DNA from: Takakia lepidozioides
Taxonomy: Eukaryota; Plantae; Bryophyta
Assembly: GCA_030704615.1 (NCBI GenBank)
Contig: CM060734.1
Span: 23,312,001 to 23,376,000 of the forward strand
Reading direction: 5' to 3'
DNA: 64,000 nucleotides
Part shown: positions 8,640-62,830 of the stretch, in pieces
Numbering within the stretch: the stretch's first letter is position 1
Layout: each line of letters opens with the position of its first letter
Notes under the pieces: generated by a model
Seen by the model: only the letters and a program-made list of their open reading frames with translations
Databases searched by the model: none
Told to the model about the DNA's origin: nothing
Position numbers and translations under genes: made by a program

Positions 8640-9635
8640 CTATGGATGCGGCCTGCACCTCGTGGTCCTCACCTGTTCGCCCCCACTCGCTGCCTGTACC
8701 GTCTCGGTAGGCAAAGAGACTATCAAGGGAAGTGTACTGCATACTCTGCGCTGCTCAGCCATAGCCAAGCTGATAATCCAGGTCAAGCAATTGAGATCCA
8801 TGGCTTGCCCCAACATCTGACGATGTGATGCCTCAGAAAGAGATGGCACCGCCGTGGTACCAGTGATAAAACCCATTGCCCACTCGCGCTCATCAGCATT
8901 GGGCTCCACTAACTGCTGCAACTGGCTATCCCACAAGAGGCCAGGTCCACCATCCCGGAAAGCATGAGATCCTGGAAAACTGAGCAGTGTAGGCAATGCT
9001 GCTCGTGGGTGACCCACCTTATTGACCACTGCCAAAGGTGATCAGTCATCGTGTCTCACACGCTGAGACTGCCTCCCTATGTCCAAAATGCTATTCACTG
9101 TCAGGTTTGGTGGCCGCTGCACCCCATCAAATGCACGCTTGAGCAATGCAGGTGGCATCAAGTTGGTCCACCATAGTCGTGGGTGATGAGCCCGTGACCC
9201 CACTGCAGCTGCATCCAACAACACTGCTGACCCAAGCCAAGACCGCACTTGATGTACAATGGCCATCACCTTGGCCCGAGAATCACCCATCGATGGCACG
9301 TTCTCCAAGATATATGCCGGAGAGTCTGTCTGCTGAAGCTGTAAATAGCGCATGACCCTCAACATCTCCCAAAACATGCGTGACCTTGAGTCTTGTAACC
9401 CATTGCCATACCCAGCTGATGAAAGCCCTTGGCAGGGCCAACCTACCACTACTAAGTGAATAGGGCCAACCCGCTCCAAATCATGCGCCCCCAGCAAGGA
9501 GATGTCTACTGGCAAGGCTTGTTGGTATCCACGAACTGCAGACACTGGCAACAAATCAGGGTACTACTGCACCAACTGAGCAACATGGCGCAGTGAGACG
9601 CGTCGTGCAGTCTCATCCCTCTCCACATATAAACA
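8640..9635 (-). pseudogene. DNA (cytosine-5)-methyltransferase domain, DNMT3-like, N-terminally truncated
   Basis: YVERDETARRV (motif II region), GPIHLVVVGWPCQGLS (motif IV, catalytic PC), YILENV (VI), SRAHHPRLWWTNL (VIII), EREWAMGF (IX), RQMLGQAMD (X). Motif I (FxGxG) is lost at the junction ~9635. In-frame stops at ~9564 and ~9042. Confidence 0.88.
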
Positions 9636-12600: not shown

Positions 12601-13200
12601 GAAGAAGGTGCCCTCACCACATTGTCCTTGACGATTCAATATGTAAATTCAGGGCCGAGTCTGATGAGAGGGAAAAACAGGCTGAAATAGGTCGAAGAAG
12701 GAGGTGCCCTCACCACATTCTCCAAGGCCTCCATACCACGCCCCTGTTGTGCACACCTTGCAAGCATCGTGTTCCACGTGATGAAATATCGTTGAGGCAT
12801 TCTGTTGAACACTTGGTGAGCATCCATGATGCTCCCGCACATAACATATATGTTGACAAGGGTGTTGAGTAGAAAAATATTTGGCGTGCACTTTGGATAA
12901 TGTGAGTGTGCACCTGCTTTCTAGCTTCGCTTGGCCTTTCATCTTGATGCACTTATGCAAGAGACAGACATACGTATCTGAATCTGCTGAAATGCCTCCT
13001 TGGTTTAAAGTCAGTAGAGCCTCTTTCAGTCTGCCTGCCAAAGCATCTTCACATGCCTAAGTGCCAGAAGAGGCATTGTGGACTCCCTCTCTTGACCTCT
13101 TCCAGAAGTTGTGGTCATGGTTGAGGTGCCTGACTTTATCAACTGTGCCGCTGCAGTTGCTGCCTTTGGCGATGCAACCATGCACCTCTTTGCATCTGGT
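9636..13200. repeat. Diverged tandem segmental duplications (about 4 copies of a modular 0.3-0.6 kb unit) interleaved with PPR fragments
   Basis: The block gcattcaccttttt...gtcaaagtcactccaaac...ctgatgagagggaaaa recurs at ~9636, ~10469, ~11046 and ~12367. The block ctcttggatgaatctggacccacac...gctagcagctga recurs at ~9985, ~10860 and ~12188. Confidence 0.8.
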
Positions 13201-14430
13201 AATCTGACAGGCATTCACCTTGGTACAATTCTAGCTCTGAAGATGTCACCATGTGGACCTCTTTCCCCTTTTCCAAAGCTGCCAGGGCAGTGTTCAGATT
13301 GACATTTGGTACAATTCCAGCTTTGATGATATCCCCATGCACCTCTTTGCCCTTCTCCAGGTCGGTTGCTAGGCTTGCACAAGCATTGCAAATGCACACA
13401 AACATGATGTGCTTCCATTGCTCATAGGTCTCCAAAGCCTCCATTCCACATCCCTGTTGTGCATACCCTGCAAGCACATCATATCGCACTCCATGACACC
13501 ACATGTCGTTCAGCCATAGTGTCGAACACTCCCCTTTGAATCCTAGATGCACCCACATTTTGCAAACATGTTCACCAGGGTATTGTTCAGAATGTCATCT
13601 GGTACAATTCCAGCTCTGAAGATGTCGCCATGCACATCTTTCCCCATTTCCAAAGCTGCAAGGGCAGTGTTCAGATTGACATTTGGCACAATTCCAGCTT
13701 TGATGATATCCTCATGCATCTCTTGCCCTTCTCCAGGGCTGCCAGGCTTGCACGCACATTGCAAATGCACACCACATCTCGTTCAGCCATAGTGTCGAAC
13801 ACTCCATTTGCATCCTAGATGCACCCACATTTTGCAAACATGTTCACCAGGGTTTTGTTCAGAATGACATTTGGTACAATTCCAACTCTGAAGATGTCAC
13901 CATGGACCTCTTTCCCCTTTTCCAAAGCTGCCAGGGCAGTGTTTAGATTGACATTTGGCACAATTCCAGCTTTGATGATATCCCCATGCACCTCTTGCCC
14001 TTCTCTAGGCCGGCTGCCAGGCTTGCACAAGCATTGCAAATGCACACAAACATGATGTGCTTCCCCCATCATTTGCTCAAAAGCTCTCCAAATGTCCTTG
14101 CCGTGCATACCCTGCAAGCATCGCACTCCACGACACCACATCTCGTTCAGCCATAGTGGCGAACACTCCCTTTGCATCCTAGATGCACCCACATTTTGCA
14201 AACATGTACACCAGGGTATTGTTCAGAATGACATCTGGTAGAATTCCAGCTCTGAAGATGTCGCCATGGACCTCTTTCCCCTTTTCCAAAGCTGCTAGGG
14301 CAGTGTTCAGATTGACATTTGGCACAATTTCAGCTTTGATGATATCCCCATGCACCTCTTGCCCTTCTCCAGGGCTGCCAGGCTTGCACAAGCATTGCAA
14401 ATGCACACAAACATGATGTGTTTCCCCCAT
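11242..14430 (-). pseudogene. PLS-class pentatricopeptide repeat (PPR) pseudogene fragments, tandemly amplified
   Basis: Repeated NTLVNMYVKCGSIMDA, VVSWNAMLAGYAQQGHGMQALETY and ACASLGPLEKGKEVHGDIIKA motifs. Two LCEAGRL-type N-termini (~11990, ~13040). Near-identical 270-360 bp units at 13290-14420. Frameshifts throughout. Confidence 0.9.
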
Positions 14431-14444
14431 CCTTTGTTGACACT

Positions 14445-17400
14445 GATCCCCTGCAACTAAACTTTTTAACTGAGACCCTTTCACTGATCCCCCCATGCAG
14501 AACTAGATAAGGCAATGAAAGTGCATTGGCCAGCACAAGAGTACTGCAACACCACTACAAGACTGATACAAGTCTGATACAAGTCTGATTTTTGGATCAC
14601 CAATCCCCTGCTCCTGATCCCCTGATCCCCTGCGCCTCCTGGACCCCCGAACACTGATCCTCTGCAACTAAACCTTTAAACTGATCCCCTGCAACTAAAC
14701 CCTTTAAAACTGATCCCCTAATCCCCTAATCCCCTTCCACTGTCCCCTCATGCAGAACTAGGTCAAGAAAGTGTATTGGCCACTACGTCAAGAGCAGTAC
14801 AAGACCACAACAAGACTGTTTATCTGATGAGTGTTCCCGTGCTTCTCATCCCCTGATCCCCTGAGCCTCCTGGTCCCCTGAACATGGATCGCCTACAACG
14901 AAACCTTCTAAGTGATCCCCTCTCCCTGATCCCCCCATGCAGAACTAGGCAAGACAATGGCAGCGGGAAGGGGAGTGACCACAAACCAAAATGGCGTTAA
15001 TCTCAGCATCGGCATCGTCCACAATGAATGTGTTGGGACGCCAATCTGGCTGAGCGGCATGGAGCCTTTGGCGAAGAACCAACATCCAACTTGACAAATC
15101 GTTGGCAGTGTTTCTTGAAGATATTATGTATGCAACAGGGATGTCATTCAGCCAAATGTCGAACACCATAAGAGTATATATGGCATACTGCACAAAAAGA
15201 CAAAATGTGCAACGTAAGTACGTTTGTTTGAAATGTACCAGACATTTTACTGAAATTAATGATACGAAACTACAACAGATCAAACCAAATAACATTCAGT
15301 ACATGTGGATGATAAGTGGGACGTGACCCATGTCATTGCTCCCCCTAATCCCCAAGGCATTAATTTTATTATTCTGTGATCCCCCTTGTGGGGTATGCCA
15401 TGATCCCCTGCAAATGGTCCCAACATGTACAGAGTAGTCTACAAAAATGCGGGTGTTGGCCCATGTGTCTGGCCCCCTAATGGGCTGAAAGCTGCCGTGC
15501 TCTCCAATCCGATACGTCTGTGGCCGTAATGACCCAAGTGCCGTGATCCCCTTCACATTGGATCATGCTATGCTCTCATGCTCCCAGGAGTCTTGTTGTC
15601 ATAACATACTACAACAAAAACCATGTTGATAGAGCTGACAAGGTCTGCCATGGCGACATTGACCCGAGTTCAAATAACACCCGTTCCGCGCACACACCTC
15701 ACCTTAGTGAAGAGGTAAAGAGGTGATAACGGATAGCACACGCGTTGGTTTGTCGCCCGCTGAAAGAATGTCCCAACATGAGCAACAGGTATTTGGCAGC
15801 AAGCTCAATGGATTAGAGAAGTGGTGTCGCGATGATGTTGCATGTAAGACTTTCAAGCGGCATAAGGACGAGGGGACCAGTCTGAAGATGTGGAAGGATG
15901 CCCAGCCACAAAGTGTTTTCTTCTATCAAGAGGACACGTCCAATACCCCTGCTGAAGGAATACGGCGGGGCAATGTTGACCTCAAATTTGCCATTGGCAT
16001 ACAAACAAAATTTCAGAAAAAAAAAACAATGCTCGAATTGGGTGACAAACGAATCGTATCTTGTGATGTGACCTTCGGAACCAATGAACATAAGCCATTG
16101 TGTGTACTCGAAGGCTTGAGAAGGATCCAGGTAGCATCGACCTATCCTAAACTGACAAAGACAACCCCTCTTGATGGACTCTCCCTGAACGACTTTCTTC
16201 CGTCTCGGCCCAGGCTTATGGTTGTTGTAAGAAGGCGATGAAGCATCCAGCACACACCCTCTTCTCCCGTTCCTTCTTTCAAAGAATTTTTATTGACAAG
16301 TATGACATTTATGCGCTTGTCCTCAGGTCCATAGGAACAATGGAACCTGAACAATGATGAAATCTAAGTCAGTGGAGTGAATACTCAGAGCAAGAGAGCA
16401 TAGTACAGAACAGAAGAGCAAACAATGTAAACAAGCAGCATGCCATGAGAAAGAACACAGTGAGACCATCCAGAAACCACAAAGGAGAAGGCGGACTTTA
16501 TCACAAGAGAGCAACTATTGGCCCTTGGAGCTAAGAGTTCGCCCTCCTCATGCTTTCCCTTTTTAGGCACCGTTCTGTTGAAGTGAGTGGGTGCCTCTGG
16601 CCTTTCTTCCTCCCCTCTCACAAAATCGTCGATCCTCATCCAAGGAATAACTGCAACATCCGTATTGACACGATGTCCACCTCCACTTGAAATAGTCGGA
16701 GTCCATAGAAGGCTCTTGTGGTTGAAGGAACCATCCGGGGGGATTTGCAAAGTGCTACGAAGCTGTGACAGAAGGAATGACGTGCGCAACTCCGAAGATG
16801 CACTCATGATGCCTAGCAGCCCTGCAGGAACAGTACACACCAGCAAACTTACTCGCAAGTGCAGCATACACACGCGCAAAGAGGAACAAACCTGAGAATA
16901 GCAGGAAACCCTAAATTTGGATACATCCACTCCATTCATCTCGCAGACCAAAATGGCGGGGGACGTGCATGGCTGTTGGATGAGAGACGTTGGATGGACG
17001 GCACGGATGAACGGGATCACAACGACGTGGGAAATAGCCGTGTCAGTTGACACGTAGTAGGGGGATTGCCGGAGGGGGGTCAGCCCCTGCAAAGGAGGGG
17101 GATCGGCAGCTGGGGGAGCAGATGGAGGGGGGATCCCGCCAGGTGGTGTGGGGGATCGACGGAGAGGGGAGCGCCACGTGCCTATCCAGATGTGGGGGAC
17201 GAGGGGGGGTCCCGCCATTGAGGGGCGGGAGGATCGAGGGCGGGGGACGGGCACGTGGCATGGCGGTGGACCCGGGGGATCAGCCCCTACAAAGGAGGGG
17301 GATCACCAACGGGGGAGCGGACGGAGGGGGGATCCCGCCAAGTGGTGCGGGGGATCGACGGAGAGGGGAGCGCCATGTGCCTATCCAGATGGGGGACGGG

Positions 17401-18250
17401 CACGTGGCATGGCGGCGGACCGGGGGGATCAGTCCCTGCAAAAGAGGGGGATCGCCAGGGGGGGAGGAGCGGAGGTAGATGATCCTACGGTGGTGCGGTG
17501 AAGGAAGGGAGATCGGCGGCGGGGGAGCGCCACGTGGCTCGAGATCGGGCGGTGGTGATGGGGCGCGGGGGGGGGGGGGTGGAGATCGACGGCGAGGGGA
17601 TCGCCATGTGGCCTTGCGGTGTCATCCGCCCTTCATCGGACCGTCATCCATCCCCTACGCAAGAGGATGACGGGGGATGAGGGGCGGATGATCCACATCA
17701 TCCATGTTTTTAAGGTTGGATGGATGTGCAGGGGATCGAGGGTTGGGGGGACCACCACCGGATAACTCGAGGGGGATCAATCTCCAAATTGGAGGGGGAT
17801 CAACCGAGGGGGGAGCGGAGTGGAAGGGCATCCCGCCGTTGATGGGAGTGGGGGATCAACGGTGAGGGGACCGCCACGTGGCCATTTGGTGTCATCTTCC
17901 GTTCATCCTACCCTCATCCATCCCTTTGCATGGGGGTATCAACGGAGGGGATGTGGACGGCGCGGGGGAGCACATGGCGGGATCCCCTGGGCTGGGGGAT
18001 CAGTCCTGTATGGGAGGGGGATCAACGTAGGGGGAGCGCCACGTGGGGGTGATGGGGGAGAGCAGTCCCTGCTAGGCGGGGGGATTGGAGCGGTGGGGGA
18101 TCGGGCGTTTCAAAGAGGTGGGGATTGACGGTGGAGGGATCGGCACGTGGTGGGAGATGGGGAGGGGACGGGCGAGCGAGGGGACGGGTGGGCAGGGGCT
18201 GGCGGGGGCAGAGGGGCCGGGCCGGGGTAGAGGGGGCGGGCGGGAGGGGG
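14445..18250 (-). mobile_element. MULE/SWIM-family transposase relic resembling the Arabidopsis At4g13970/At1g60560 family, with an internal inversion and GATCCCC/GGGGATC repeat arrays at either end
   Basis: Minus strand: IPWMRIDDFVRGEE, FHCSYGPED, SIKRGCLCQF. Plus strand (inverted): NHVDRADKVCHG...FAIGIQTKFQ...CDVTFGTN. Minus strand again: YAIYTLMVFD...IPVAYII...WRPNTFIVDD. Confidence 0.75.
17060..18250. repeat. Very G-rich degenerate repeat array (GGGGATC, GCCACGTG motifs; ~200-bp internal duplications)
   Basis: Many GGGGATC copies. The block gggggatcccgccargtggtg...ggggatcgacggagaggggagcgcca...tgcctatccagatg occurs at ~17125 and ~17325. Confidence 0.85.
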
Positions 18251-18627
18251 GTGGGGAGGATTTGACATGGGGCTTCCAGCCTGCCGGAGGTGTCAGCTCA
18301 AGCGTGCGTAATAAAATCAAGCTACTGCCCTCCGTTGAGCAGCAACTGCCTCCAAGCAAAAGGAATGATTGGTCTGACGTTATTGACCGGGACAGTTTCC
18401 GTTCAAGCAAGAATAGGAGACACTTTGCAGGACCTAGAGAATGGAACCGAGTAGCAGATCACTAGATCCTCAGACACCAAGTGCATGTCTTCTTTCGGAG
18501 TTAACTAGAATATGCCAAGGCCAGAAAATGTTGTCTAATCTGTCAGGAAACTAACAGATTAGACAGATATCAATGTCTTCAACCGACCTACCTATGACAC
18601 CCCAAGCTGACAGGAGGTCAAAAGAAT

Positions 18628-24600: not shown

Positions 24601-25874
24601 CACATTTCAACTTGGGAGCCCAGCTTGATCCATTAAAAGAACTTGAACCCAAATAGTGGAAAGATGGAAGTCAAATACCCTCTCAGCTCGCCACTGGCAT
24701 GGATGACTTGGCGTTCTCTTACCTACATCTAGCTTCTGCCATCAGGATGACAAAATAACTGTTGACACTGTCAAAATACCACTGGAGACTTGATGGTCGT
24801 CCACCTAGGTTGGCACTGAGTTCCTTCGCTATCACCAGAACAGGGAGGGACACAGAGAATGTCCTCATAAGATGTTGTTTGCCCTGGCCTTGTGGCCATA
24901 GACCCCGCGCCCAGTTTGGGGGAAACAAGGGAACAGACACTACCTTTGTGAGCAGTAGTGTGACTTACCATGATAAAGACAATTTGTTTGATTTTCCAGA
25001 TATCCTCTAGAAAGCCCTTCACACAAGCATCAACTTGGTGAGTGTGAACTCCCCAGCAATTAGACTCCAACAGGGCCATTAGGCTGAGCCTCAAGATTTT
25101 CGAAGTTGGTGAACAGAGATGCGGGGACAGTGTTCTTGATGTTCCTGAAGAGGATCACTGTCTGGTGAGATATATCCCGGACAATGTACCAGAAAATGGA
25201 TATTGTCTTCAGGCTGCCCGTACATCTGGCAATTACAATTGCCTCTTCCTCTCTGCATCTGCTAATTGTTCAAAGGTAAGTTTTGCGCCCCGAGTTTAAA
25301 TTTCAGTCTAGTGCCAAGGGTAGGTCGGCCCTTGAGATCATCCTTAGGGTCCTCACTCATGTCACAGACTTAAAACAAGTTCAGGGAAGTTTTATGCCTA
25401 ACTTCATTTCATCGACAGTCTTCAGGCATCTGACATGGCACATTGGTTGCTGTAGCCTTCTTGTGGCCATAGAAACCCCGCCAAGTTTGGGTGGAACAAG
25501 AGGGAACAGACCCTACCTTTGTGAGGGGCTCACTCTGGTAGTGGGACTTACCTTGGTGCAAGCAGGCAATAGGTTTATACACACGGGCATACCCTAGCCC
25601 AAGTGCAAGCAAGCAAGACAGAGCATGCAACTGCCCACTTTGAGTGGAGGGGCTGCCCCCACATAGGGATCAGCTTGTTACCATTCAGAGATCATCACTC
25701 TATAGGAGCTGCAGGGAATGGCTTGCGTAGATGATAGAGAGAGAAAGAGAATGTACTCACAAGACATTGTTTGCCGTAGCCTTAGAGAGAGAATGTACTC
25801 ATAAGACGTTGTAGCCTTAGAGATTGTACTCATAAGACATTGTTTGCCGTAGCCTTGTGGCCATTGTGTAGCCT

Positions 25875-25915
<41 letters not shown>

Positions 25916-26934
25916 TTAAGGGTGGATCTTCTGGTCGAAGAGAGAGGATCTACCTTCCACTCCCGCATGCCATCAGCGTTGTCTGGGGTTACAACCTTGC
26001 TTGTCCTTTCCCCCTTTGCACTCCTCAGGGATTCCAACAAGTTAAACAACATTTTGCTCTTCTTGTCAACCACCTGGTCAAATTGCTTGCCTCCATGAAC
26101 TGGTCTGCTGTTGAGGACCTTCCCATCTGAGAGAGGGGGTAACAGATTAAGACGACAAAAAAGAAAAATCAGTTTGACAGATCATGATACAGATGATCAT
26201 GTTAGAAAGCATGAAACAGCACATGAAAGGAAGCCCACAGTCTTCTGTTCTGTCTAACCACGAGCAATAGTCCACCAAAATTGTTTTCTCAGTATGAAAT
26301 ATGGATAATGGAGTTTACATCTAAACTGGAGTAGTTCCTCAGTGAAACAGCCTGAACTACTCAAGGGTTGTCTGATCCAGGGACGATTTAACATTCCTCT
26401 GATCAACTGCTCAACGTACGAAAAAGCTGTCACTCTCAGGCTACCAGGGTCTAGAATAAAAGAAAGACGAGAACAATTTCCCCGCTCCATACAACTTTAC
26501 CATCTGTACAATTTCCCCTGCGAAATTGCAGTTTCGGGGCAATGGGCAGAGAACTCCACGGTGAAGAGACGAACTGGAGCGACAGAAAGAAAGCATAGAG
26601 ATACCAAGGAGAGCCGCACTGCACAGTCGTTTGAAAAGTGACTCACAATAGAAACACGGATGATCGAGGGTTCACTACAAATCGACCATACACAAGAATT
26701 CGCAGTTCAAGAGAGAGATTGGAAATCCAAGTCAATATCGTGCTTAAGCATTTACGAATGCTCAACTGAGACTGCTTCAGAGTTGAGAGAGCAAAAAGAG
26801 AGAGAACCTTCGGCAGCGCGGGAGGAATTATGCAGCTGACTGCGTATGAGTCCTCGAAGGCACGTCTTATCAGACAGAGTAGGCGAAGCCAAAGTCTTGT
26901 CCAACCTTTGTCTGGCCTCAATTACTTTCGTCAT
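18628..26934 (-). CDS. Multi-exon START/polyketide cyclase-dehydrase lipid-transport superfamily protein (At3g11720/At5g06440-like)
   Basis: Approximate exons with GT-AG ends: 26808-26934 (MTKVIEARQRLDKTLASP), 25954-26127 (...MREWK), 23160-23269 (LKQDTSESRVMYCEGPEGTPYHSL), 22554-22594 (LCVAWEAPEYKEW), ~22195-22288 (WPQFVAPSFK), ~21610-21710 (VKVPWPLAMREI...DDLIVVLLSS), ~20291-20428 (VRMDLVGGFVLQK), ~20035-20137 (DMKLDFVPPWLINFVARQL), and the terminal exon ending at 18628. Confidence 0.85.
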
Positions 26935-27275
26935 CCTTGCTTCATGGATAGCAGCTCAACACAGTGACATCTCTGCCGCAATGGCAATGGTCGCGTCCAA
27001 TCTCTACCCCGCCTCAATCATCTGTGATTCTTCCTTCATGCAACAGTCAATCCGTCGAGCCTCAAAAAACAACATAAGGCTCTACCCGGTCAACCTCATG
27101 CCTCTAGAAAAACATGCTGAGCTGTGCACCAAGCAAGTCTATGGCGGATGTCACAGTGGCATGTTGACTATCTTCCTCTCTCTCCCTTTGTGCTCCGCTC
27201 AAACTGGGCGCGGGTCAATGGCCACAAGGCTACGGCAAACAACGTCTTATGAGTACATTCTCTCTCTCTCGCTCT
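24858..27275. repeat. Dispersed short repeat family: several intronic copies plus one inverted copy upstream of the START gene
   Basis: Core agaatgtactcataagacgttgtttgccgtagccttgtggccat at ~24855-24915, partially at ~25460, and tandem at ~25745-25870. Reverse complement at ~27200-27265. Confidence 0.75.
25877..25910. repeat. (GA)n microsatellite
   Basis: Uninterrupted GA run in an intron. Confidence 0.95.

Positions 27276-46376: not shown

Positions 46377-46426
<50 letters not shown>
46377..46426. repeat. Poly(T) tract of about 50 nt
   Basis: Homopolymer run. Confidence 0.95.
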
Positions 46427-51985: not shown

Positions 51986-52034
51986 AATGCATGTGACACC
52001 TACGATACCCCTCGACCCTACGCAGCTCATCTAA

Positions 52035-53850
52035 GTGGTGCTGGGGGAACCAACTGGTCACATCAGGCACACGCTCTGGCACAAATTCATCAAGCAAACC
52101 GGCGCGAAATTCGAGAATGTGTGTAGTCGCAAACTGGAGCAGACCAGCGCTGGTACCCCTGCAACAAACTTTGTGGAAGTATGTTGGGATGATGAGGATG
52201 AGATCTTGGCAGAGATGACAACTCTAATGAAGGAACAAAGCATCAACGAGGTTCTAGGCTTCCTAGGAACCGAACTCCCTTACCACTACCTTTGCGGTAA
52301 GTGCTGGGCGGTCCAGGGGTGCAGATGATATCAGTAATGAGCCAGGGAACTCTGGAGAAATATCCACTCCAGCTCGGACCCCTTGCAATGTGGAGACACA
52401 ACCCAAATCTAAGATTTTGAGTCATTTATATAAGGGGAGAATCTCCCTCTCCCCTATGGATGTGATCATGTCTGTTCCAGGGGAGCTTGAGAAGCTCAAA
52501 GGTTTGGTGAAGGTTGTAGAACGGGCCATGGGGCAGCAAAGAGATGCTGTATCATCCTTGACGGCAGTCAAGGAGCCTGCAACGAAAGCTGCAGTAAAGG
52601 CTCTATATCCGCATGAGATGGAATCCAGTGCCATCTCATATGCTTACTCTGGAAGGGTAAAGCCTTCCATGCAATGATCACAGTGGGGGAACATCAGGTA
52701 CTGGGACAAGTCAACACTGGTGCCACGCTGTCTGTCATGCCAGCCAACACAGCTCGAGACTTGGGGCTTATGGGGTCTGTAGTCAGTGACAAGGATGTCA
52801 CTTATAGGGTGGCATCAGGAGCAGTAGAGACTGCCATGGGGAGACTTGAGGATCTGAAGGTCACTGTGGGGGAGCTCACTAACAGGCTCTCCTTCATAGT
52901 GGTTGACACGGATACTTACAACATGCTGTTGGGGATGGATTTCTTGAAGAAGTTTGGAGCCGTGGTTGACACCGAAAATGAGACAATCAGTGTGAGGTAT
53001 GGTCCAGGAAAGGCAGTGGCTCATTTTCCCTTGCATACTATAAACCAAGTTGAATCTGTGAGTGATGAGGAACAGGATGAAGCACATATGGGGAAGAGAA
53101 GGCCCAGCCAAGTCATGACAACCACTTTACTGCAGGAGGATCATGCCGCAAGGAGGTCAAAGGTGAGGAAATTCTGGCTGTTCGCTTTGAAGCAGAAGTA
53201 GGGTGTGAAAAACCCACCAATGCATCTGAAATCACATGTGATCAGAGAAAGGTCATGTGTATGAAAAGGATGAGAAGAGAGACTGAAACTCTGGAAGAAA
53301 GAAAAGTACAGAGGCAGATCAGAAGCCAGGTACAGCAAGAGAGAAGGAGCAACTCTGACTTCTCCAAGCCAGTCAATTCCACAGATGCTAAAAATGGGGC
53401 TACATGCATTTATGGGGGGTTTGGCATTACCCATCGTGACAACAAGGCTGGACGGTGCACCCTTACCATGGACACGGGGTGTTATCAATCAATCAGCGAG
53501 CTCTGCATGGCTATCTGTCATAGACCTCCAGAGTGGGTCTTACCGACCTAAAAGCCATGATGGTAACAAGGAAGTTGTAGATGAAATCATCATCTACCGG
53601 ATCGCAAGACGAGTCAACATGCGTTCCCCCTTTCAGGACCTCGAACTCCTTCAGGGATGACGGTGTCGATGGGTGGTGTTCTCTTACGAGACAGTGCGCG
53701 TCAAAAGCTTATGTCTACGAAATCAAAACACAGGAGTCAGTGGAGAGAGCACCGAGGGAAGACCAAGGGAATGAGCTGAGGACACCATTGAACCATGTTT
53801 GCGTCAACACAAGGATGGAAGAGGAGATGGACAGCGCAAGAGAAAAATAG
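52035..53850 (+). pseudogene. Continuation of the gypsy gag-pol: aspartic protease relic and decayed downstream sequence
   Basis: VLGQVNTGATLSVM (DTGA-type motif with D>N) and YNMLLGMDFLKKFGAVVD. Confidence 0.75.
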
Positions 53851-53909
53851 AGCAATCCAAACATGGAAAACATTTCCACATGATTGATTGTAATGGAGGA
53901 TATTACATA

Positions 53910-56900
53910 CCTTCTGGCTTGGGAAGTCCCCCTTTGTAAGTGGGGGACTGTTAACTCCATTCTAGCTTTTAATCACCTTCATCCCACCAGACTTCAGAAA
54001 ACTGGCCAGTAGTCGTCTGCACTTTGAATTGGCTGCTTGGAGGATGAGCAAACACCTATTGTCAGCCAAGAAGTTCCCACAAAATTTGAAGACCCAAGGC
54101 CAGTAGCGCTCGTCCCATTCATTCCAGGACAGAGTGACACCTTTCGGAGGGAGATCTGGGACTGGAAGCCCGTCTGGAATGTCCACAACAACGAGCTCGC
54201 AGGCAAAGGGTTTCTTCTCTCCGTTCACCCAGGATGGACCTTTCCCAGCCTTCACACAAAAAAAAAAAACAATCCCACTTACAGGACTTGTGAACACACT
54301 GCAAAAATAAAATGACAAGGAGGGTGGAATGTAGAGGGAATTTACCAAAGTGAGGAATGAAGATAGTGTCTCCCAAGTCGGGGACTTCTCGTTGACTGTG
54401 CCGCCTTTCCTCCTTGATTCCATCATGTCCAAGAAGCTTTCGTTCACAGTCTTATGTTGGAATCCCGTGGCCACACCTCTGCCAGGGTTAGGTAGGGCCT
54501 CGTTTGGCCGATCTGACAGAGTGAGTTGTGACCCCCTCTGAGCCCCTCCTGCCACAGCAGCCGCTGCCTGGCTTTGTTCACCCTTTTTCTTTTTATCCTT
54601 CTTCTTTCCACCCTTCTTTTTTGGGCTCGGATTCACAACCGGTTCCTTTGCTCTCAAAAGCCGGAGATCTCTCAACTGCAGCTGCCTATCTATAAGTGGA
54701 GCAAGAGCCTCGGCATTGTCATTCAAGTTCCGAAGGACGTTCTCCTCCCAGGGTGTGGATTGTTTCACGCAGTCCAGGTACCAGCCACAGTCTTTCAAAT
54801 GGGACCTGCTCCAGTCCTCCAGAATTCCCGCTGTGTACATAGTTATGTCCGGATTTGTCTTTGCCCAACTGTCAATGAAGAATGGGTATGCGCTTAGAAA
54901 CCCCCCTGGAAAAAGCACTCTGTGGATATATCTGCGGTGATAGCCAGAACAGAAATCAATATAAGTACAAGACATACATGATAGCAGTTACAAAACCTTC
55001 GCTGTAACAATTTACAAAACATTCATACAGTCATTCTTGCATCAACGAAAGCCTAATCCTGGTTCAGGAACATGAGCCTTGACACCCAAGAAGTTGTTTT
55101 CCCTGTCACTTCAACAAAACTGATGGCTGTCATGAACCAGGCTTGCGTTAACGCAAGCCTGCTGCAGACCCGAAAATAGACCCATCCCTCACAGTCTAGA
55201 GGGACCCTGAATCCACCAACTATGAACTCCACAGCCTCACAACAGACCCCTAACACACTCAACTGGATACACCAAGCTCCATTACACCCAAAATCAGGCT
55301 TCCGTCAACGCAAGCCTTATCCCTGCCCCAAGGTAAACGGAGACTACAAGCCATGATGAGCAGGGTCGGCAGGCTTGCTTTAACACAAGCCTCAATAGAG
55401 GCAGTTTCTGTCTATGAAAATAGCACTCGAAAATGTTAATGCATGAATAACAAACCTGTATATGACTCGTTTCATCACCTGCTCGCCATTGTGCTGCGCA
55501 TCGAACATGTTAGAGCGATTTATGCCACCTTCCACAGCAAATTCCTGGAAGAACGCATGGTTCCAAACGACCCCTTTCACCTCCTTATCTAGGTCTCGAA
55601 TGACTCTTCCGGTGTACCAATCACGATCTTGAAATCTGTGAGTGATTTCTCCATAACCTCCTCAGCCCTCTCCTCCAACTTGCACGTGGAACACTCTGTT
55701 AGAATGTACTATATAGCTCAAACACATTCAGTCCAAGTAATGAAGAGTACACAAATTCTTACCTCAGCCCAGAATGTGGCTTTATGTAGCCAGATGTCCC
55801 AAACTTGATCACTGAAAGGGGTTACAACTCCAGTGGTGGCGTTTCTCTCGCCCATGGGAAAACTATTTGTCTGGCGGAGAACAGGCTCGGAGTTCCAAAT
55901 CTGAAGCCAACGCACTTTTACTGCAGGCTCTACCATTGCCATAGCAAGCCGGTGCAGCTTCTCCTGTGTCATTTCAGGCTTCGTGTTCTTGCTCCAATGA
56001 ATGCGGACCTCTTCCAAAAACTGTAAGCCAAGACCAGGATCAGCTATACACAGCTGTTTGGTGAACGCAGTCACCACCTTCCCTCGGAATTCGTTCATGT
56101 GGAAGGTCATTGCCGTTTCTATTCCGAAAGCAGTGCGTTCACTCTCTGGAGTCTTTCCGTAGTACTCCGCTTTCCCCCGCTCACCCGCATCAGCAATTTC
56201 TTGCTACCCAACACAAGGACAAGGTGAAAAGAGAGGTCAGTCACCCAAATGTGGACTGGAAAACCTGAGCCCAAACTCCACAGTGAATTAGGCTTGCGTC
56301 AACGTAAACCTGACCAGATGTTCTGGTATGAAAAGAAAACAACTCTCAAATGCAGGACTTACCGTGTACATGTACTCCAGGAATGCATCCCTAGTGAGTG
56401 TGTACCATGTCTCTGCCCTTTTGGAGGTTTCGCACTTCTCGAAGGCCTCAGGTGACAGAATAGTCTTGAAGCTGGACAGCGGCATTCTTCCGAGCTTTTG
56501 CATCCTGAATAATGTGTGCACCAGGTTTGTTGTAACATGGGAAGACTCTGTCTGCCCGCACAATCAAACCCAGTGTGAAAAAATGAAAGACAGGGTCCTC
56601 ACGACAATGAGTTCGTAGTAGAATCTGGTGAATGTAGAGAGAACTCACTTGTTTATATCATGCATGGCTGGTAGCAGCTGGGTGTAGTTCCCCCTCCAAT
56701 CCAAAACACATGCCGCAACTGAGTAGTGCCAATCTTTCTCCTCTTGATGCATATTGTCGATGTACTCCTTCCAAGCAAGCAGGCGGTGGTTCCCGTCCCA
56801 AACAAAGAACATCTTGTTACTGTACACCTGTAACTCGGGAATCCTGGACAGAGACTGTTCGAACTCCAAATTCACTTCCTTCCACCAAGTCATCCCACTT

Positions 56901-57245
56901 GCCCATGATCTCCTCGTCAACCACTTTCTCGTTCCTTGGAATCACCAACAGAAACGTAAAACACTGGGGTTCCAAACACATACCCGTGCACAAAATCTCC
57001 CTGGAGTTTCCTGATATCCCCCGTCAAGGCAGGACGAATAGCGGGCATTGAAATCATCTTGCAGAGGGGTATCATTAGGTTTGCCTCCATAACCATCATG
57101 GACCGGATTACTTGTCCTGATTTCACCTTGGACCCCGACCTGATCTTGATGGCCATGCCCTTGTAATCCATATCAGTGTCCTGCACTTCTGTCTAGACAG
57201 CTTGCGCCACTGCAGGTTCTTTGCCCTTCCTCCTCTTCTTCTGCT
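53910..57245 (-). pseudogene. Multi-exon gene: ParB/Srx-like N-terminal domain and C-terminal amino(N6A/N4C)-methyltransferase-like domain; truncated at both ends
   Basis: FFVWDGNHRLLAW (ParB/Srx GxxR-type motif) in 56645-56920. CELVVVDIPDGLP...WNEWDERYWPWVFKFCGNFLADNRCLLIL in 53962-54250. GT donors at ~56648, ~56361, ~55761 and ~53910. Confidence 0.6.
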
Positions 57246-57344
57246 TGACACAAGAAACAGAAAAAAAACAGAAGCAGTGAGAACTCCCATTCAAATATGG
57301 GTTCCTTCCAGCCTCAGAAATCAGGCTTGCGTCAAAGCAAGAAT
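55138..57344. repeat. Five dispersed copies of a 22-bp palindrome (consensus AGGCTTGCGTYAACGCAAGCCT)
   Basis: Copies at 55139-55160 (perfect palindrome), 55296-55317, 55371-55392, 56290-56311 and 57323-57344. Confidence 0.85.
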
Positions 57345-57376
57345 GAAATGGAGGTCTTGCAAGCACTCTGAATGCT

Positions 57377-59814
57377 TTGCCTTCAGCCATCGCCCTTGCA
57401 GCAAGCATGACGTTCTTGCAAAAACATATTCTTGGGGAACCAGATGCCACCTCATCGAAGCTGGAATCCTCAAACGTGGAGGCTGTGATGGATCATTTCT
57501 CAACTTTAAGCAGTCCCAATGTCCGGAACCATATCAACGCACAACGAATGGGCCCTGGGAACAGAGGTTTTGTTGATAGCATTTTGGACTTGAAGCGTAG
57601 AAGCAAATATGACTTCACTCAGGATAGTGTCTTCCCAGGCCAGGGATCCATGAAAGTGTACTTATTCAAAATGTCGACGGTGGGGGAAGGTAGTGGGGTT
57701 AGCCTGGTCCGTAGAATGCAGCCCGGAGGAGATATGGAGAAATCGTGGCTGATGTTCGATCATGTCAAACGTGTTAAGGACTGGACAACCATGGCTTGTC
57801 ATGTGTACGATCCAACTTACCAAAGAGTCATGACTATAGCAGTTTGCGACATGCAATCCGAGGACATCGAATCTCAAATTTTGATGTGGAAGTCTCTTGT
57901 CAACGTGATGATATTGAATGGTGTGCCTGATCCAAACTTCAATGGATTCATGGCTGACAGTGCACAAACAAACTGGAATGCAGTGAGCTGTGTGTTTGGT
58001 TCTGGAGACCCCAAAACACCTATGGAAGGTAGGGAGCGCATCTGTCTCTTTCATTGGACACAGTCCCTTCGAAGGCATACAAAGAGTTGTATAAAAGTGG
58101 AATTGCAGGACGAGCATATGAGACTTTGCCGCTTGTACAAAGATGCATCGACTGAGCATGAAGCAAACTCATTGTATCAAACTATCCGAGCATGGTGGTA
58201 CTCCTCAGATGCAACAAGCCAGGAAGGTCTCAAAGAGCTTGATGACTAATTTGGGTTTTGGCATTTCCGGTACAGACAGTGGGGACAGTAAGTTCTGGGA
58301 CTCTGAGGGTTTTTTTTTCTTCACTTGTCAGGAGGGATTGATTCATTTGATGTTGGCTGTTGTCCACTACAACTGCACTTCAAACAAGAAAACTCACTGG
58401 AAAAGCTCATTGCTTGCAGAATATGACGCTGGAGGAAATTGCGGATATGCCCTCTTGCAATCTTTCGAAGATAGTGCACAGTGTTTGGATGAAGCAATCC
58501 GGGAAGAACGAGCGGGATCTGTACGTTGCAACATCTGATGACATGGTCCGCACGCTATCGCAACAAACACGGTACCGAAATTTCCTTCGGGCACGGGGTG
58601 CAGGCAAGGGCCAGACAGGGCAGAGTTGCTGCTCAGGGCTGCAAACAGATTTAAATATCCTACTAAGATGGCACGGGCTGTGAACGAGTGCACAATTGGA
58701 ACACCATTGCAGTCACGGCTTGCACATCTGGAAGGAGAGGAGAGGTTTGGTTTGTGCAAACGCAAACTTGACACCCCACCAGACTCAGATGCAGATTCGC
58801 ACCGGCACGATCGGGACAACTTCTCGGTACCACGTGTGCCTGTGCCCCCCACTTTTGGGTTGCCACCCCTTTGTGGGGGAGTCTTCTTTGCCTCCATTCC
58901 CTCAGGAGTCTCCAACCACCACAGTCCCCGGTGAAGGGGAGAACATGCTGCCGGTAGAGGTAGAGGAGCAGACTGTACAGACGCAATGTGGCATATCGAA
59001 CGGACTCCCCATGGATCAAAAGTCAAATGTGCCGCTATTAGGGCCCCCTCGTTCTAGAAGTGTAAGTCCCAAATTTCCAAAGGGACTTGCGGAACTCCTG
59101 CCCCGACATTCACCGGGTTGTTCAAGCATTACCAGTCGCGGGAGTCTAGGCCTCACAAGTTTTGGTTCTGTCCGGATGACATTGTGCGTTGTGTCATGGG
59201 GACCGTTCGGGAATCTGTGATAATGAAGCCTCAAATTCCAGCCGTGTGGCCAGTGAGGTTAGGAACCGCACTCTCCAGACTGGAAATTGACATGCTAGAG
59301 GAGGTCGGGTTTCGCCTTCCAAGAGTCCATCATGTCGTAACACCGGTTAACCCAATGGCTTTCCCTTTCAACTTTCCGGCACGTCCTCGACATGGCAACG
59401 ATAGGCCCACAAAAAGGAATGGAAAGGCGGTACGTCAGGTTGAGGCTGGTGCAGACAATGAGTGCAAGATGGAGTCTGCTAGAACCCTACAGTGTCGCGT
59501 CACCCAAATTGTGAATGTTCCTTTGCCAGGGTATGGGCGAGTGTACCATGGCGACTTCTAGATCGGTTGTTCATGTCAGGACCTATGAGATTACTATTGG
59601 CGATTTCCCTAACTGCACTTGTCCGGACTTTCAGAACACACTCTCAAGCTCTCTTGGGAAGAGAGTGAAATTTGTCCCGTGTAAGCATCTTTACTACATC
59701 TACATTTGGAGGATGTTTTGCGATCCTAAACGAGACACGTACATTCACCAATGTACGATAGGACCCAGTGACGTTCATACACTGCTACAGAGAGATACTT
59801 CGGGTATAAATTGA
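57377..59814 (+). mobile_element. MULE-like DDE transposase with C-terminal SWIM zinc finger, disrupted and intron-containing
   Basis: WLMFDHVKR, GFMADSAQTNWNAV and CLFHW (CxxH). Putative intron gtaag...ttgcag at ~58288-58420. SWIM motif CTCPDF...CKHLY. Confidence 0.8.
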
Positions 59815-60407
59815 GATGTAGTCGGGATTTAAATTGCAACTCTGCCGGTTTGCCGTCCTTGTCATTGTTACCCAAACCTGGCTGACTCGGACTTTGGAGA
59901 TGGCTACCTTTGCTTAATGGGAACATTTTTTGAATGAGATCAATGTTGTTTTGCAATCAATATTTGTTTTCAATCTTGTTTTCCAATGCATGTTTGTCTT
60001 ACAACCACGTGGACTTGTACCGGGCTTAGTGCTGGTTAATAATGGCAATACTTTCTTGAATAAGATCAATCTTGTATTGCAGAATTGGCTTATGACTTCA
60101 CTTTGTATGAGATGAATGGGATCATGTCATGAATGGCCTTTTACAAGCAATCCTATTTCACTCATTCACGCCACATTCATCCAGTCATTATCATCAACAT
60201 TCATCCGCATTCATCCATTTCCTAAACCCAATCAATCCATGCTTACTTCGTCGAGAAGTTTTTTGTACACATTCGTCCCACATTTTCTGTCATGGAGGTC
60301 GGCGTCTTTGGTCCCAGCATGGTATGTTAGCTTCCAATAGGCACCGGGTTGCGTCCACGACAACTAGGCCCTGCTTCTTCCACGGTTATACATTCCACTT
60401 CCAATTT

Positions 60408-60505
60408 GTGCTCACGCTTAACTTGTGCTCACGCTTAAGGGAATCTGCTCATGATTAGTGGAATTTGCTCACGCTTAGTGCGCTCACGTGAGCGCGCTCA
60501 CGCCG
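60408..60505. repeat. Cluster of GCTCACG(CTTA) short repeats downstream of the transposase
   Basis: About 6 copies, including the palindromic gcgctcacgtgagcgc. Confidence 0.7.
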
Positions 60506-60604
60506 CAGCTGCTCTCAAATTATGGGAGACGGTGCATGTTACCACACACTATCTGCCTATAAACCAACCCTCTATGATTACTAGTTTGTGGGATCCATTA
60601 ACAG

Positions 60605-62480
60605 TTGCGCTTGGCAAGTGCTTATCCCCCAGCTACGTACCAGCCTGAAGCGGTAGGCATGTATGCTCCAGTTTCGGTGCAGGAGAGAGCGCCCAAAACT
60701 TTAGCTTTACGAGCCCCAGGGTCACAGGAAGATGCAATTATGGCATTCGCTAAGAAATTTGGAGAATTGGAGGTGAAAATGGCCGAGAAGAGAGAAGGCC
60801 GACCCAAATCCAATAATCAAAGGCCAAATTCTTGGTGTGGAAATTGTAAAGGCTATGGTCATATTGCTACAGAATGCCCTTCACCTCCTAGTGTTGCCAA
60901 TGCGGAGATTGATAAATGCGGGTTATGCGGGAAACATCATTCTATATTGCAGTGCTGGCATCTTAAAGCTGCAATGGGAGTACCACCGGAGAACTCCAAT
61001 AATCAGAAGGCTGCTCAACAGACAGCTGGTTGGGGTGTTAATCAGGGTGGAGTTTAGACCCCAGGAAATTGGCAAAGATAGACCCAAGGTCCACAAATGG
61101 GAGGCAACTTTTGGCAGAATCGACCGCCCAAGAATTGGACACAATCTCCAAGTCAACTTAATAGACCACCAGTTTGGAGAGGAGCTCCATTTCAACAACC
61201 GGAGAATCCATCACCAGGAGAGCAACAACCGTACACTTAGTATGGAGGACCTGTGAGGCAGACCAGGAATGGCCAATATCATGTGTGTTATCGAAATAGG
61301 ACATTATGCAAATGAATGCCCCAACCCGAGAGCGCAGGAAGAGTACATGCCGCTTTGTGGAAGGTGTGGATTGCAAGGCCATACGGCTAATAACTGTAGA
61401 GCAGCAGCTCCAGTTGTTAGGCAGAGACCGTATCCGGTGACAGAAACCATGGGGACTCCATCTTTACATTCAACCCCATCGAATCCACCAACTACTGCTC
61501 AAACTGGTGTCGACGTGCGGAGGATTGAGTTGGTTGCAGAGATGGGGTGTGCCTATGATTGTAGAAAAGGGAAGGAGAAATTGGAGGATGACTTCCTTAC
61601 ACAAGTGGGGGAGCAGTATCCCATTCATACGGTGTTGACCCGAGGGCAGAAGAGGGCTCGACCCTATAATCGGTGACGGAAAGAGCAGGGGGAAGGGAGT
61701 GCGCAAAAATTGGATGAAGTAACATCGATTTCTGAACGATTACATCATCCAGTAGATGTAAAGTTGTAGCCCAATTTTCGTATGAAAATATAATATCGAG
61801 GTTTGGCTGTCCATTGGAATTGGTTAGTGATCGAGGTACCCATTTCATAAATGAAACAATTGCCCCATTGACGGAACGATATGTGATTAAGCATCGAAAG
61901 ACTACTCATCATCCTCGAGCCAAGGGGCAGACAGAACGAACCAATGGGCTATTATGTGGCATTTTAACTCGCACAGTTATGGGTGTGGGTTATGATTGGG
62001 TTACTAAATTGTTTGGCGCTTTATGGGCCTATCGCACAGCTTTTAAAATCACTACTGGGCAAACCCCATTTCAATTGGTTTATGGATTGGAAGCTATCCT
62101 CCCAGTGGAATTGGAACTCCCTACTTTGCGAATTATTATACATGAACGTCTTTCTGATGACGAGTCTTTGTCCTTATGCTTAGCCCGATTGGAACAATTG
62201 GATGAAATTTGAAGGCAGGCGTTACAAAATATTGAAGTTATCCAAAGACGGCGGAAAGATTATTATGACAGCAGGCTCAAACCTAAATCCTTTAAAGTTA
62301 ATGATTTGGTTCTTCTTTATGACAGTCGGTTCCAGAAGTTTCTTGGCAAGTTAAAAATGAGGTGGCTGGGCCCCTATCGAGTAAAAGAAGCATTATCTAA
62401 TGGATCCGTCCAATTTCATGGGAAGGCGAGGATTTACCTACTCGCATTAATGGGGATCGAATAAAAATATACTATCATTA
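60605..62480 (+). mobile_element. Ty3/gypsy relic: gag C-terminus with multiple zinc knuckles joined directly to integrase (PR/RT/RH deleted)
   Basis: Knuckles CGNCKGYGHIATEC, CGLCGKHHSILQC, GHYANEC and CGRCGLQGHTANNC. Integrase LVSDRGTHF, GQTERTN, LWAYRTAFK and GPY-type tail WLGPYRV. Confidence 0.85.
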
Positions 62481-62519
62481 ATCCCGAGGGCGGGATTAAT
62501 AATAAAAGGGGGGGAATTC

Positions 62520-62830
62520 TTCATTAATTCAGTCATTACTTAGTATTCAATATTCAATATTCATTCTTCAATATCCAATATTCATTACTCAATATCCATT
62601 CTTCGATATTCAGTATTCAATTATAACTACCTGTTCTTCAATATTCAATAGTCAATTATAACGACATGTTCTTCGATATTCAGTATTCAATTATTCATTT
62701 ATAACTACCTGATATCGTTCTCTAAATATTCAATATTCATATTCAACTTTAACTACTGCATCTTCATCATTTATTATTCACTATTCAATACTTAACTACC
62801 TATTATATAATATTTAAACTGTCCAATAAT
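62520..62830. repeat. AT-rich low-complexity (TATTCAA)n spacer
   Basis: Many tattcaa/ttcaatat repeats between the integrase and the extra ORF. Confidence 0.75.

Follow-up and report, generated by a model that had tools for sequence, protein, structure and literature searches.

Background

Two accessory genes of algal transposons come closest to the locus described here. In Ectocarpus, the element Sola1-1_Ec32 carries, on the strand opposite to its transposase, a gene with a ParB-like part and an N4/N6-methyltransferase part; according to the proposal of its authors, the product, of about 1100-1200 amino acids, binds this same element and modifies it (Dinatale et al. 2025, PMC12477816). In red algae, the Plavaka elements (EnSpm/CACTA) carry PAG3, a ParB-like protein with adjacent inverted-repeat arrays, for which self-binding is proposed (Petroll et al. 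2025, 10.1101/2025.02.11.637652). What we say of published systems follows the accessible parts of these and of the other papers cited. We analysed 64,000 nucleotides of the bryophyte Takakia lepidozioides (assembly GCA_030704615.1, contig CM060734.1, positions 23,312,001 to 23,376,000), a stretch called the window below, whose own coordinates are used throughout. It holds a decayed transposon in which two genes were recognised: a broken accessory gene on the minus strand, with a ParB-like start and a methyltransferase-like end, and, head-to-head with it on the plus strand, the relic of a transposase of the type of Mutator-like elements (MULEs). Seven copies of a palindromic word of 22 bp lie in the non-coding parts of the accessory gene. 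We propose, with a probability of roughly one half, that such palindromes are cis-acting words proper to each family of elements, likely read by the element's own accessory protein in an anti-silencing system like that of VANC.

Like Sola1-1_Ec32, the Takakia element has an opposite-strand accessory gene with a ParB-like N-terminus and an amino-methyltransferase-like domain. Its host is a land plant and its transposase is MULE-like, whereas Sola1-1_Ec32 belongs to a brown alga and has a Sola transposase; the text describing the latter names no repeats ("palindrom" does not occur in it, figures and supplements apart). With PAG3 it shares a ParB-like accessory protein, a domain of DNA-modifying type and inverted-repeat arrays beside the gene. 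PAG3, however, has a putative 2-oxoglutarate oxygenase, the methylase being on a separate gene (PAG2), whereas a methyltransferase-like end is fused to the protein here; and the arrays of PAG3 are adjacent and tandem, whereas our words are also dispersed in introns, differ from family to family and share a frame of two CG steps. The accessory gene has the features of this kind of gene, namely the fusion of a ParB-like with a modification-type domain, a place on a transposon beside the transposase, and inverted-repeat arrays; the likeness to both algal proteins is one of description. For algal transposons, published work already outlines such a design; what is new here is the land-plant MULE-like carrier, the family-specific words and their shared CG frame. 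The literature that we consulted, made up of the algal papers and general reviews, held no land-plant report of such a gene and no family-specific words for it; supplements and subscription papers may hold more.

In Arabidopsis, the motifs that VANC binds belong to its own family of elements and lie in introns and in intergenic tandem repeats (PMC5735166). The VANDAL elements resemble ours in being Mutator-like and in having an accessory gene and family-specific non-coding motifs, often in tandem (PMC5735166; PMC10398659). The motifs of VANC, however, are 8-9 bp long, non-palindromic and in one orientation (PMC5735166), whereas ours are palindromes of 18-26 bp, in mixed orientation in several families. 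The accessible texts describe no ParB or methyltransferase domain in VANC (PMC5735166; PMC10398659), and its activity has been shown by experiment, whereas that of the accessory protein is predicted. No VANC family came up when the accessory protein was scanned against Pfam, no VANC sequence having been compared. With the bacterial clamps ParB/parS, Noc/NBS and KorB/OB, the accessory protein shares the ParB/Srx fold, the motif GxxRxxA and a gene with palindromic sites close by. ParB proteins have two such motifs, GxxRxxA and EN(I/L)QRE (PMC11229316), the second of which reads IN-x-x-E here; unlike the bacterial clamps, the protein also has a long insertion in the domain and no recognised helix-turn-helix (HTH), and it is eukaryotic, intron-bearing and transposon-borne, with no ParA among the two recognised genes, no search having been aimed at one. 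Fusions of ParB-HTH with methyltransferases are known from chlorophytes and chytrids (Iyer et al. 2016). Finally, DN4MT1 of Marchantia, a eukaryotic beta-class N4C methyltransferase, has the motif TSPPY (10.1101/2021.02.12.428880). It resembles the end of the accessory protein in the order of its beta-class motifs and in its land-plant host, and its CG context would suit the CG frame; it differs in that our family reads DIP, DYP, DVP or DLP, has a changed motif for S-adenosylmethionine (SAM), is fused to ParB and is transposon-borne.

A palindromic word outside the exons of the accessory gene

A reading of the window made from its letters, hereafter the sequence-only reading, had pointed to five copies of a palindrome (55139, 55296, 55371, 56290 and 57323), the first of them perfect over 24 bp with its flanks, and all in inferred introns or at the junction between the gene and the transposase. 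The mismatch count confirmed all five, and the perfect palindrome, which spans 55138-55161, is the longest of the seven perfect palindromes of at least 14 bp in the window. No copy had been noticed elsewhere: this holds outside the element, but two degenerate copies within the gene, at 55033 and 53795, had been missed (Table 1). The 22-mer has 4 matches with at most 3 mismatches in the window, whereas 100 dinucleotide shuffles gave 0.00 on average. Once the seven copies are set aside, the best place, with 7 mismatches, is 58748 in the transposase coding sequence, and no further copy is present in the 64 kb. All seven copies lie outside the inferred exons, although of 3844 possible starts just 1109 fall in non-coding sequence (p about 1.7e-4 under random placement), and all seven lie on the accessory-gene side, none on the transposase side (p about 0.03).

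The pairwise identity of the seven copies is 0.78, a value inflated by the fact that they were picked by likeness, while that of their flanks is 0.25. Hence, we are dealing with dispersed words rather than with parts of a longer repeat. In the introns of the window, CG is found 9 times in 154 bases of motif and 13 times in the 1106 other bases. The exact word has 0 matches in prokaryote genomes. We regard the palindromes as a real, selected-looking feature of a dead copy of the element.

Table 1. Coordinates of the element, of its palindromic words and of its surroundings in the window
Position	Strand	Feature	Remark
52617..53198	+	gag-aspartyl-protease piece of a long terminal repeat (LTR) retroelement, outside the element	PF13975, E 4e-14
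53535..57243	-	accessory gene of several exons, broken; ParB/Srx domain, then a helical middle, a basic linker and a methyltransferase-like end of the beta class	
57243-56649, 56555-56363, ~56202-55763, 55695-55479, 54931-54346, 54249-53911, 53714-~53535	-	inferred exons of the accessory gene	
53795..53816	.	degenerate copy, intron between both methyltransferase-like exons	6 mismatches; additional to the sequence-only reading
53911..54249	-	methyltransferase-like exon; motif-IV-like strand ELVVVDIPDG	one stop; matches the C-terminus of P0435
55033..55054	.	degenerate copy, intron 4	5 mismatches; additional to the sequence-only reading
55138..55161	.	perfect 24-bp palindrome, intron 4 of the ParB-methyltransferase-like gene	22-mer at 55139, 0 mismatches
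55296..55317	.	palindrome copy, intron 4	2 mismatches to 22-mer
55371..55392	.	palindrome copy, intron 4	2 mismatches to 22-mer
56290..56311	.	palindrome copy, intron 2	3 mismatches
56627..57210	-	domain of the ParB/Srx fold, with a frameshift; GxxRxxA present as WDGNHRLLAW	family profile iE 3e-22 and 3e-35
57323..57344	.	palindrome copy, intron upstream of the ParB exon	4 mismatches; right arm truncated at junction with transposase coding sequence
57342..57355	.	inferred internal-deletion junction	transposase profile begins at 57356
57356..59811	+	MULE-like DDE transposase relic, C-terminal SWIM finger	intron ~58295-58410; stops and frameshifts
60403..60516	+	likely right end; direct repeats of GCTCACGC at 60410, 60427, 60467, 60496	end position inferred

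Other copies in the same organism

The element belongs to a multi-copy family: 1371 contigs of run X1 match 53400-60800, and 897 of them are less than 95% alike to it (runs X1 and X3 are one sample). Over 55010-55420, the other copies show 15 major differences from the window copy, 13 of them in flanks and 2 in palindromes, and both of the latter are a return to the consensus base. At 55302, the outer mismatch of the 55296 copy, this base is found in 12 contigs, about 85% of the depth; at 55385, in the 55371 copy, it is found in 13 contigs, which make up all the X1 depth. There is no pile-up of contigs over the palindrome intron, and about 10% of the contigs matching there run on into unlike sequence. 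Single contigs link a palindrome match of 22-24 bases to other parts of the gene; such short, weak joints hint at diverged copies that keep the word while their introns change.

In run X6, taken by guess to be RNA, two contigs contain matches to exons 2 and 3 that lie closer together than those exons do in the window, by 159 and 192 bases. As the intron measures about 160 bases, this hints that diverged members of the family are transcribed and spliced. Records 23, 24 and 25 of this run (window 55769-56449), one of them 2863 bases long, resemble spliced transcripts of such members.

Many families have their own words

We fetched 80 related loci with the ParB profile, the best 80 of 259. Leaving the window aside, they fall into 34 clusters at 80% identity, and they keep the exon order of the accessory gene. 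A transposase is found in 10 of the 80, in all 10 upstream, on the opposite strand and head-to-head; when only the 25 loci with at least 5 kb upstream are considered, 7 show a transposase and 18 none. The word of the window is absent from all 80. A blind search was made for any near-palindromic 18-mer with at least 4 copies around the gene, in the families with at least 2 kb upstream, the window included: 15 of 24 families were positive. Among the controls, the far flanks gave 0 positive segments of 20 and the shuffles none, while 1 of the 8 other chunks of the window was positive. Some of the 15 arrays are other palindromes or long tandem arrays. The family words sit upstream of the accessory gene and in its introns: GGTGCCGGTAACGGCACC occurs 17 times in locus L024, ATTGGCGGCACCGCCAAT 8 times in L021, GCATTCGGCGCCGAATGC 6 times in L023, ACTTTCGGCACCGAAAGT 11 times in L068 and ACTTTTGGCACCAAAAGT 9 times in L056.

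Many of these words have in common the frame N5-CG-N4-CG-N5. Near-palindromes with CG at positions 6-7 and 12-13 number 21 in the 230 kb of the element zone (a count inflated by tandem copies, which were counted singly), 0 in the 159 kb outside it and 0 in positions 1-52000 of the window. In a held-out test on 31 families, which left out the four from which the frame had been read, perfect 5-bp arms around YG-N4-CR were seen 13 times for 1.3 expected, and 3 times for 0.8 expected in the far flanks. The other spacers gave 1 for 1.0 expected (spacer 3), 3 for 1.5 (spacer 5) and 0 for 1.7 (spacer 6); spacer 2 is enriched too, 7 for 0.8, and makes up a second class of palindromes.

Many copies of the words lie in tandem units, in L021, L024 and L068. 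No part of the 12 units in L024 is better preserved than the word (0.95 against 0.80 for the rest, p 2e-5). Arrays are also present without any transposase within 6-10 kb, in L056, L058 and L068. Close relatives share arms: TGTCT is found in L002, L006, L012 and L013, and ACTTT/ACTCT in a low-GC clade, while in L022, the locus whose protein is nearest to that of the window (52%), one word shares its GCGTTAACG core with the window word.

Beside the accessory gene we also observed repeated palindromes of a second class, with centres of the TCGA or GAGCTC type (L022:10-192, L021:1255-1574, L058:5344-5763 and upstream in L034), and some families carry two different words. Introns of the accessory gene are swollen, like those of VANC, by long tandem arrays (a 25-bp unit more than 30 times; a 34-bp unit) at L038:4725-6230, L039:4032-5512, L048:4166-4320 and L061:7976-9310.

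The accessory protein

Sequence searches against Pfam and the PDB did not name the ParB domain; fold comparison did. The model of the N-terminal domain was built from 115 relatives, for the relative P0002, which is 49% identical to the window piece (predicted local distance difference test, pLDDT, 85). With this model, Noc, ParB and sulfiredoxin lead the Foldseek matches (best E 0.011), and all 13 matches in VIA belong to the ParB/Srx superfamily, KorB being the best (Z 8.0, root mean square deviation 2.5, 90 aligned); PadC is also among the ParB/Srx matches of the fold searches. Judged from the model, the N-terminus has a ParB/Srx fold, so that the ParB-like gene announced by the sequence-only reading is borne out by the fold searches of the family. 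The motif GxxRxxA is kept (G in 113, R in 113 and A in 114 of the 115 sequences; GNHRLLA in the window). At the place of EN(I/L)QRE, the first E is I or V in 106 of the 115 and N is kept in 110; the window reads INKQTE there, across an intron. A profile search gave 1299 representatives at E <=0.001, and the named relatives of the protein are from Riccia sorocarpa and two Adiantum ferns.

The methyltransferase-like C-terminus had not been noticed in the sequence-only reading, nor had the state of the copy as a deletion derivative. PF01555 matches the relatives P0435, a liverwort protein of 1207 amino acids (E 5e-5), and P0433 (E 9e-6), just under the curated cut-off, and more weakly an exon of L017 (E 0.004) and one of L019 (E 0.02). 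Pfam and PDB searches did not name the motif-IV exon; it is the C-terminal exons that gave the methyltransferase match. The beta-class order of motifs, IV ... X-I, is present. The canonical catalytic motif of this class is (D/S/N)PP(Y/F); the window reads DIPD, and the relatives DYPE, DIPE, DVPR, DVPS, DIPW, DLPT or DVPF. The region of the SAM-binding FxGxG, whose exon is absent from the window copy, reads DFAGGWG, QMYAGCG, DCHAMTG or DWNASTG in the relatives. The Riccia relatives P0433, P0435 and P0436 carry the UniRef label "Trimethylguanosine synthase", likely a mis-annotation of the methyltransferase-like end.

A dead deletion derivative

Seven exons of the accessory gene are present in the window copy; its 5' exons and its last exon, that of the SAM-binding motif, are gone. 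Since the transposase profile begins at position 378 of 703 directly past the cut arm of the 57323 copy, an internal deletion must have taken the two promoters along with the 5' part of each gene. One contig in each of the runs X1 and X2 matches 57320-57341 only. The deletion breaks within one of the palindromes, and a short match, GCAAG, is present on either side of the junction; palindromes may be deletion hot spots. The accessory gene is also cut at its 3' end, where it adjoins the protease piece of the LTR retroelement. Frameshifts, internal deletion and LTR-element neighbours make the window copy a dead deletion derivative. Decayed LTR-retroelement pieces (protease, zinc knuckle, integrase-like text) flank the element at 52000-53500 and 60600-62500.

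In the transposase relic, positions 1-377 of the profile are gone. Its 86 longer relatives keep two aspartates (71 and 74 of 86) and CxFHW (67 of 86), and the SWIM match has E 0.0026. The label "MULE-like" rests on the reading of the DDE/CxxH motifs, which we take to be those of Mutator, because the Pfam MULE model PF10551 did not match the transposase; Transposase_mut was found in 2 of 68 at E 0.034, and the profile found nothing in the PDB. A GCM-like finger was sought with a regular expression, which matched 0 of the 86. The presumed position of the third catalytic residue (window 58430-58470) reads SKIVH, and AETVH in the relative P0037. Contigs pile up very high over the transposase core (window 57599-57845), so that the transposase superfamily must be far more abundant than the two-gene family.

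MULEs end in terminal inverted repeats (TIRs) or in non-TIR ends, with a target duplication of 8-11 bp (PMC6446971). The direct repeats of GCTCACGC at the likely right end are a word distinct from the palindromes and are candidate sites for the transposase. No left end matching this right end was found in the window, and no TIRs were found in 7 long related loci.

What may read the words

The reader of the words is probably the accessory protein and not the transposase: the placement of the words on the accessory side, the arrays without a nearby transposase and the ParB fold all favour it. The two-fold symmetry, the conservation of the arms at the level of sequence, the mixed orientation in several families and the lack of a G-U bias argue for a double-stranded site and a dimeric reader. 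The accessory protein would load on the palindromes as a dimer, likely shielding its own family from host silencing; anti-silencing or self-marking is the likeliest outcome, since the layout copies that of the targets of VANC. The sites of the dead window copy would be served in trans. A clamp of the ParB kind would allow spreading from few sites, and we tentatively suggest that a nucleotide at the intact GxxRxxA pocket closes this clamp, which would spread outward from its sites along the element; as the glutamate of EN(I/L)QRE is replaced, there may be no hydrolysis, or hydrolysis of another kind. The outer arms could well, though we would not bet on it, carry the family specificity, the two CG steps being a shared contact or modified or sensed bases. 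The CG frame would be a candidate substrate for the methyltransferase-like domain, or a methylation switch; we lean slightly towards a domain, with a motif other than DPPY/SPPY, that binds, flips or shields cytosines rather than performing textbook methylation. The complete scheme, in which plant MULE-like elements adopted a nucleotide-gated clamp of ParB/parS type, loaded at family-specific CG-framed palindromes, and in which this sliding clamp takes a methyltransferase-fold domain along all of the element to write N4-methylcytosine (4mC) or shield the CGs, so that a programmable epigenetic mark, self-spreading and proper to the family, would result, with its specificity code in the five outer bases of the arms, is speculative and rather unlikely as a whole.

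The sequence-only reading had compared the palindromes to parS. Their confinement to non-coding parts on the accessory side, their better preservation in other copies and in tandem units, and the words proper to related families lend some support to this comparison; fold searches of the middle region showed no HTH of ParB type.

Several results weigh against an accessory protein that reads the words for anti-silencing. No array was seen in 9 of the 24 well-covered families, and the CG frame fits 6 of the 15 arrays by seed (about 10 by eye), while the strict held-out pattern is found upstream in only 3 of 21 families and in introns in 3 of 19. Within families, conservation reaches 0.93-0.97 in the arms but 0.6-0.75 in the CG core, a difference that most likely reflects deamination in dead copies but would also fit a core that is not read. 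In 13 families, the distance between outer arms is not significantly correlated with that between proteins (Mantel rho 0.16, p 0.16). The middle region of a liverwort relative is all-helical (pLDDT 68) with no standout fold match, and fold searches of this region gave neither an HTH of ParB type nor another standout family that would mark the DNA-reading domain. As the promoter region of the window copy is deleted, words near the start of the transposase would not be visible there. Finally, a Mutator transposase can bind and de-silence its own family, though at TIRs (10.64898/2026.08.24.746577).

Among the other explanations, the one that survives best, unlikely as it is, keeps the same reader with another role: the accessory protein would bind the words to autoregulate or insulate the gene that encodes it rather than for anti-silencing. 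KorB and DndB repress at palindromic operators, and KorB is the best match in VIA, while Pfam gives a weak likeness to DndB (E 0.046); moreover, the sites crowd upstream of the accessory gene and inside it. However, the sites of L024, up to 17 across 3 kb plus those in introns, exceed what an operator needs and resemble the layout of VANC targets, and the fused domain of DNA-modification type would be left unexplained.

Less probable still are internal binding sites of the transposase, an alternative of the sequence-only reading which has lost ground. Both proteins travel together in the same element, so that family specificity cannot separate them, and the de-silencing by a Mutator transposase fits this explanation. 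Yet no copy lies on the transposase side, the right end holds a different, directly repeated word, and arrays remain in loci without a nearby transposase. The AtMu1 transposase peaks at TIRs (10.64898/2026.08.24.746577), and the arrays of red algae adjoin the ParB-like gene of another transposase superfamily (10.1101/2025.02.11.637652).

That the element captured sites of a host transcription or chromatin factor is improbable. A single host reader could underlie the frame CG-N4-CG across distant families, but conservation is highest in the outer arms, and these are not the same from one family to another, and 18-26 bp is a long site for a plant transcription factor.

We give even less credit to hairpins in the pre-mRNA, acting on splicing or through small RNAs, or to cruciforms in the DNA. 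Intron 4 does fold better than its shuffles (z -4.5), and pairing is kept in 17 of 19 two-sided changes. The fold, however, is accounted for by the pairing of the four palindromes, and we set the 17 of 19 aside because these changes are mostly of deamination type or a consensus tie: this concerns 16 of the 17 compensated changes, at single-family sites, which are of the C>T/G>A type or such ties. One-sided changes on the sense strand give G-U 35 times and A-C 38 times, an asymmetric centre is in mixed orientation in L049, L056, L068 and L070, dispersed copies retain their sequence and not just its symmetry, many of them are found upstream of the gene, and Rfam gave no match. The suggestion of RNA hairpins in the sequence-only reading thus finds no support.

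Last and least probable, the words could be neutral relics, ends of an unrelated MITE (miniature inverted-repeat transposable element), as that reading had also considered, or by-products of tandem-repeat turnover, as the copies in the tandem units of relatives would have it, but the unrelated flanks of the seven window copies, the contigs over the palindrome intron, which do not pile up and of which only a small part runs on into unlike sequence, the word as best-kept part of the tandem unit and the same placement in many families speak against this.

For the algal ParB-like accessory genes, self-binding was proposed in passing, without defined sites in the accessible texts; here, candidate sites are defined base by base in several families. 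Different arms on a shared frame make it possible to test cognate against non-cognate binding, dependence on cytidine triphosphate (CTP), spreading and sensitivity to CG methylation, and annotated full-length relatives exist in Riccia and in ferns. If the proposal is true, a mechanism of the CTP-clamp type would operate in plant chromatin, and these families would form a natural set of sequence-specific epigenetic effectors.

Other features of the window

Several nested duplications with a period of 84 bases lie at 9600-14400 and resemble the repeats of pentatricopeptide repeat (PPR) genes. We also noticed G-rich dispersed repeats at 17050-18260, a set of inverted repeats of 29-64 bases at 24840-27275, a long run of T at 46380-46426 and a tandem array of the TATTCAA type at 62537-62800.

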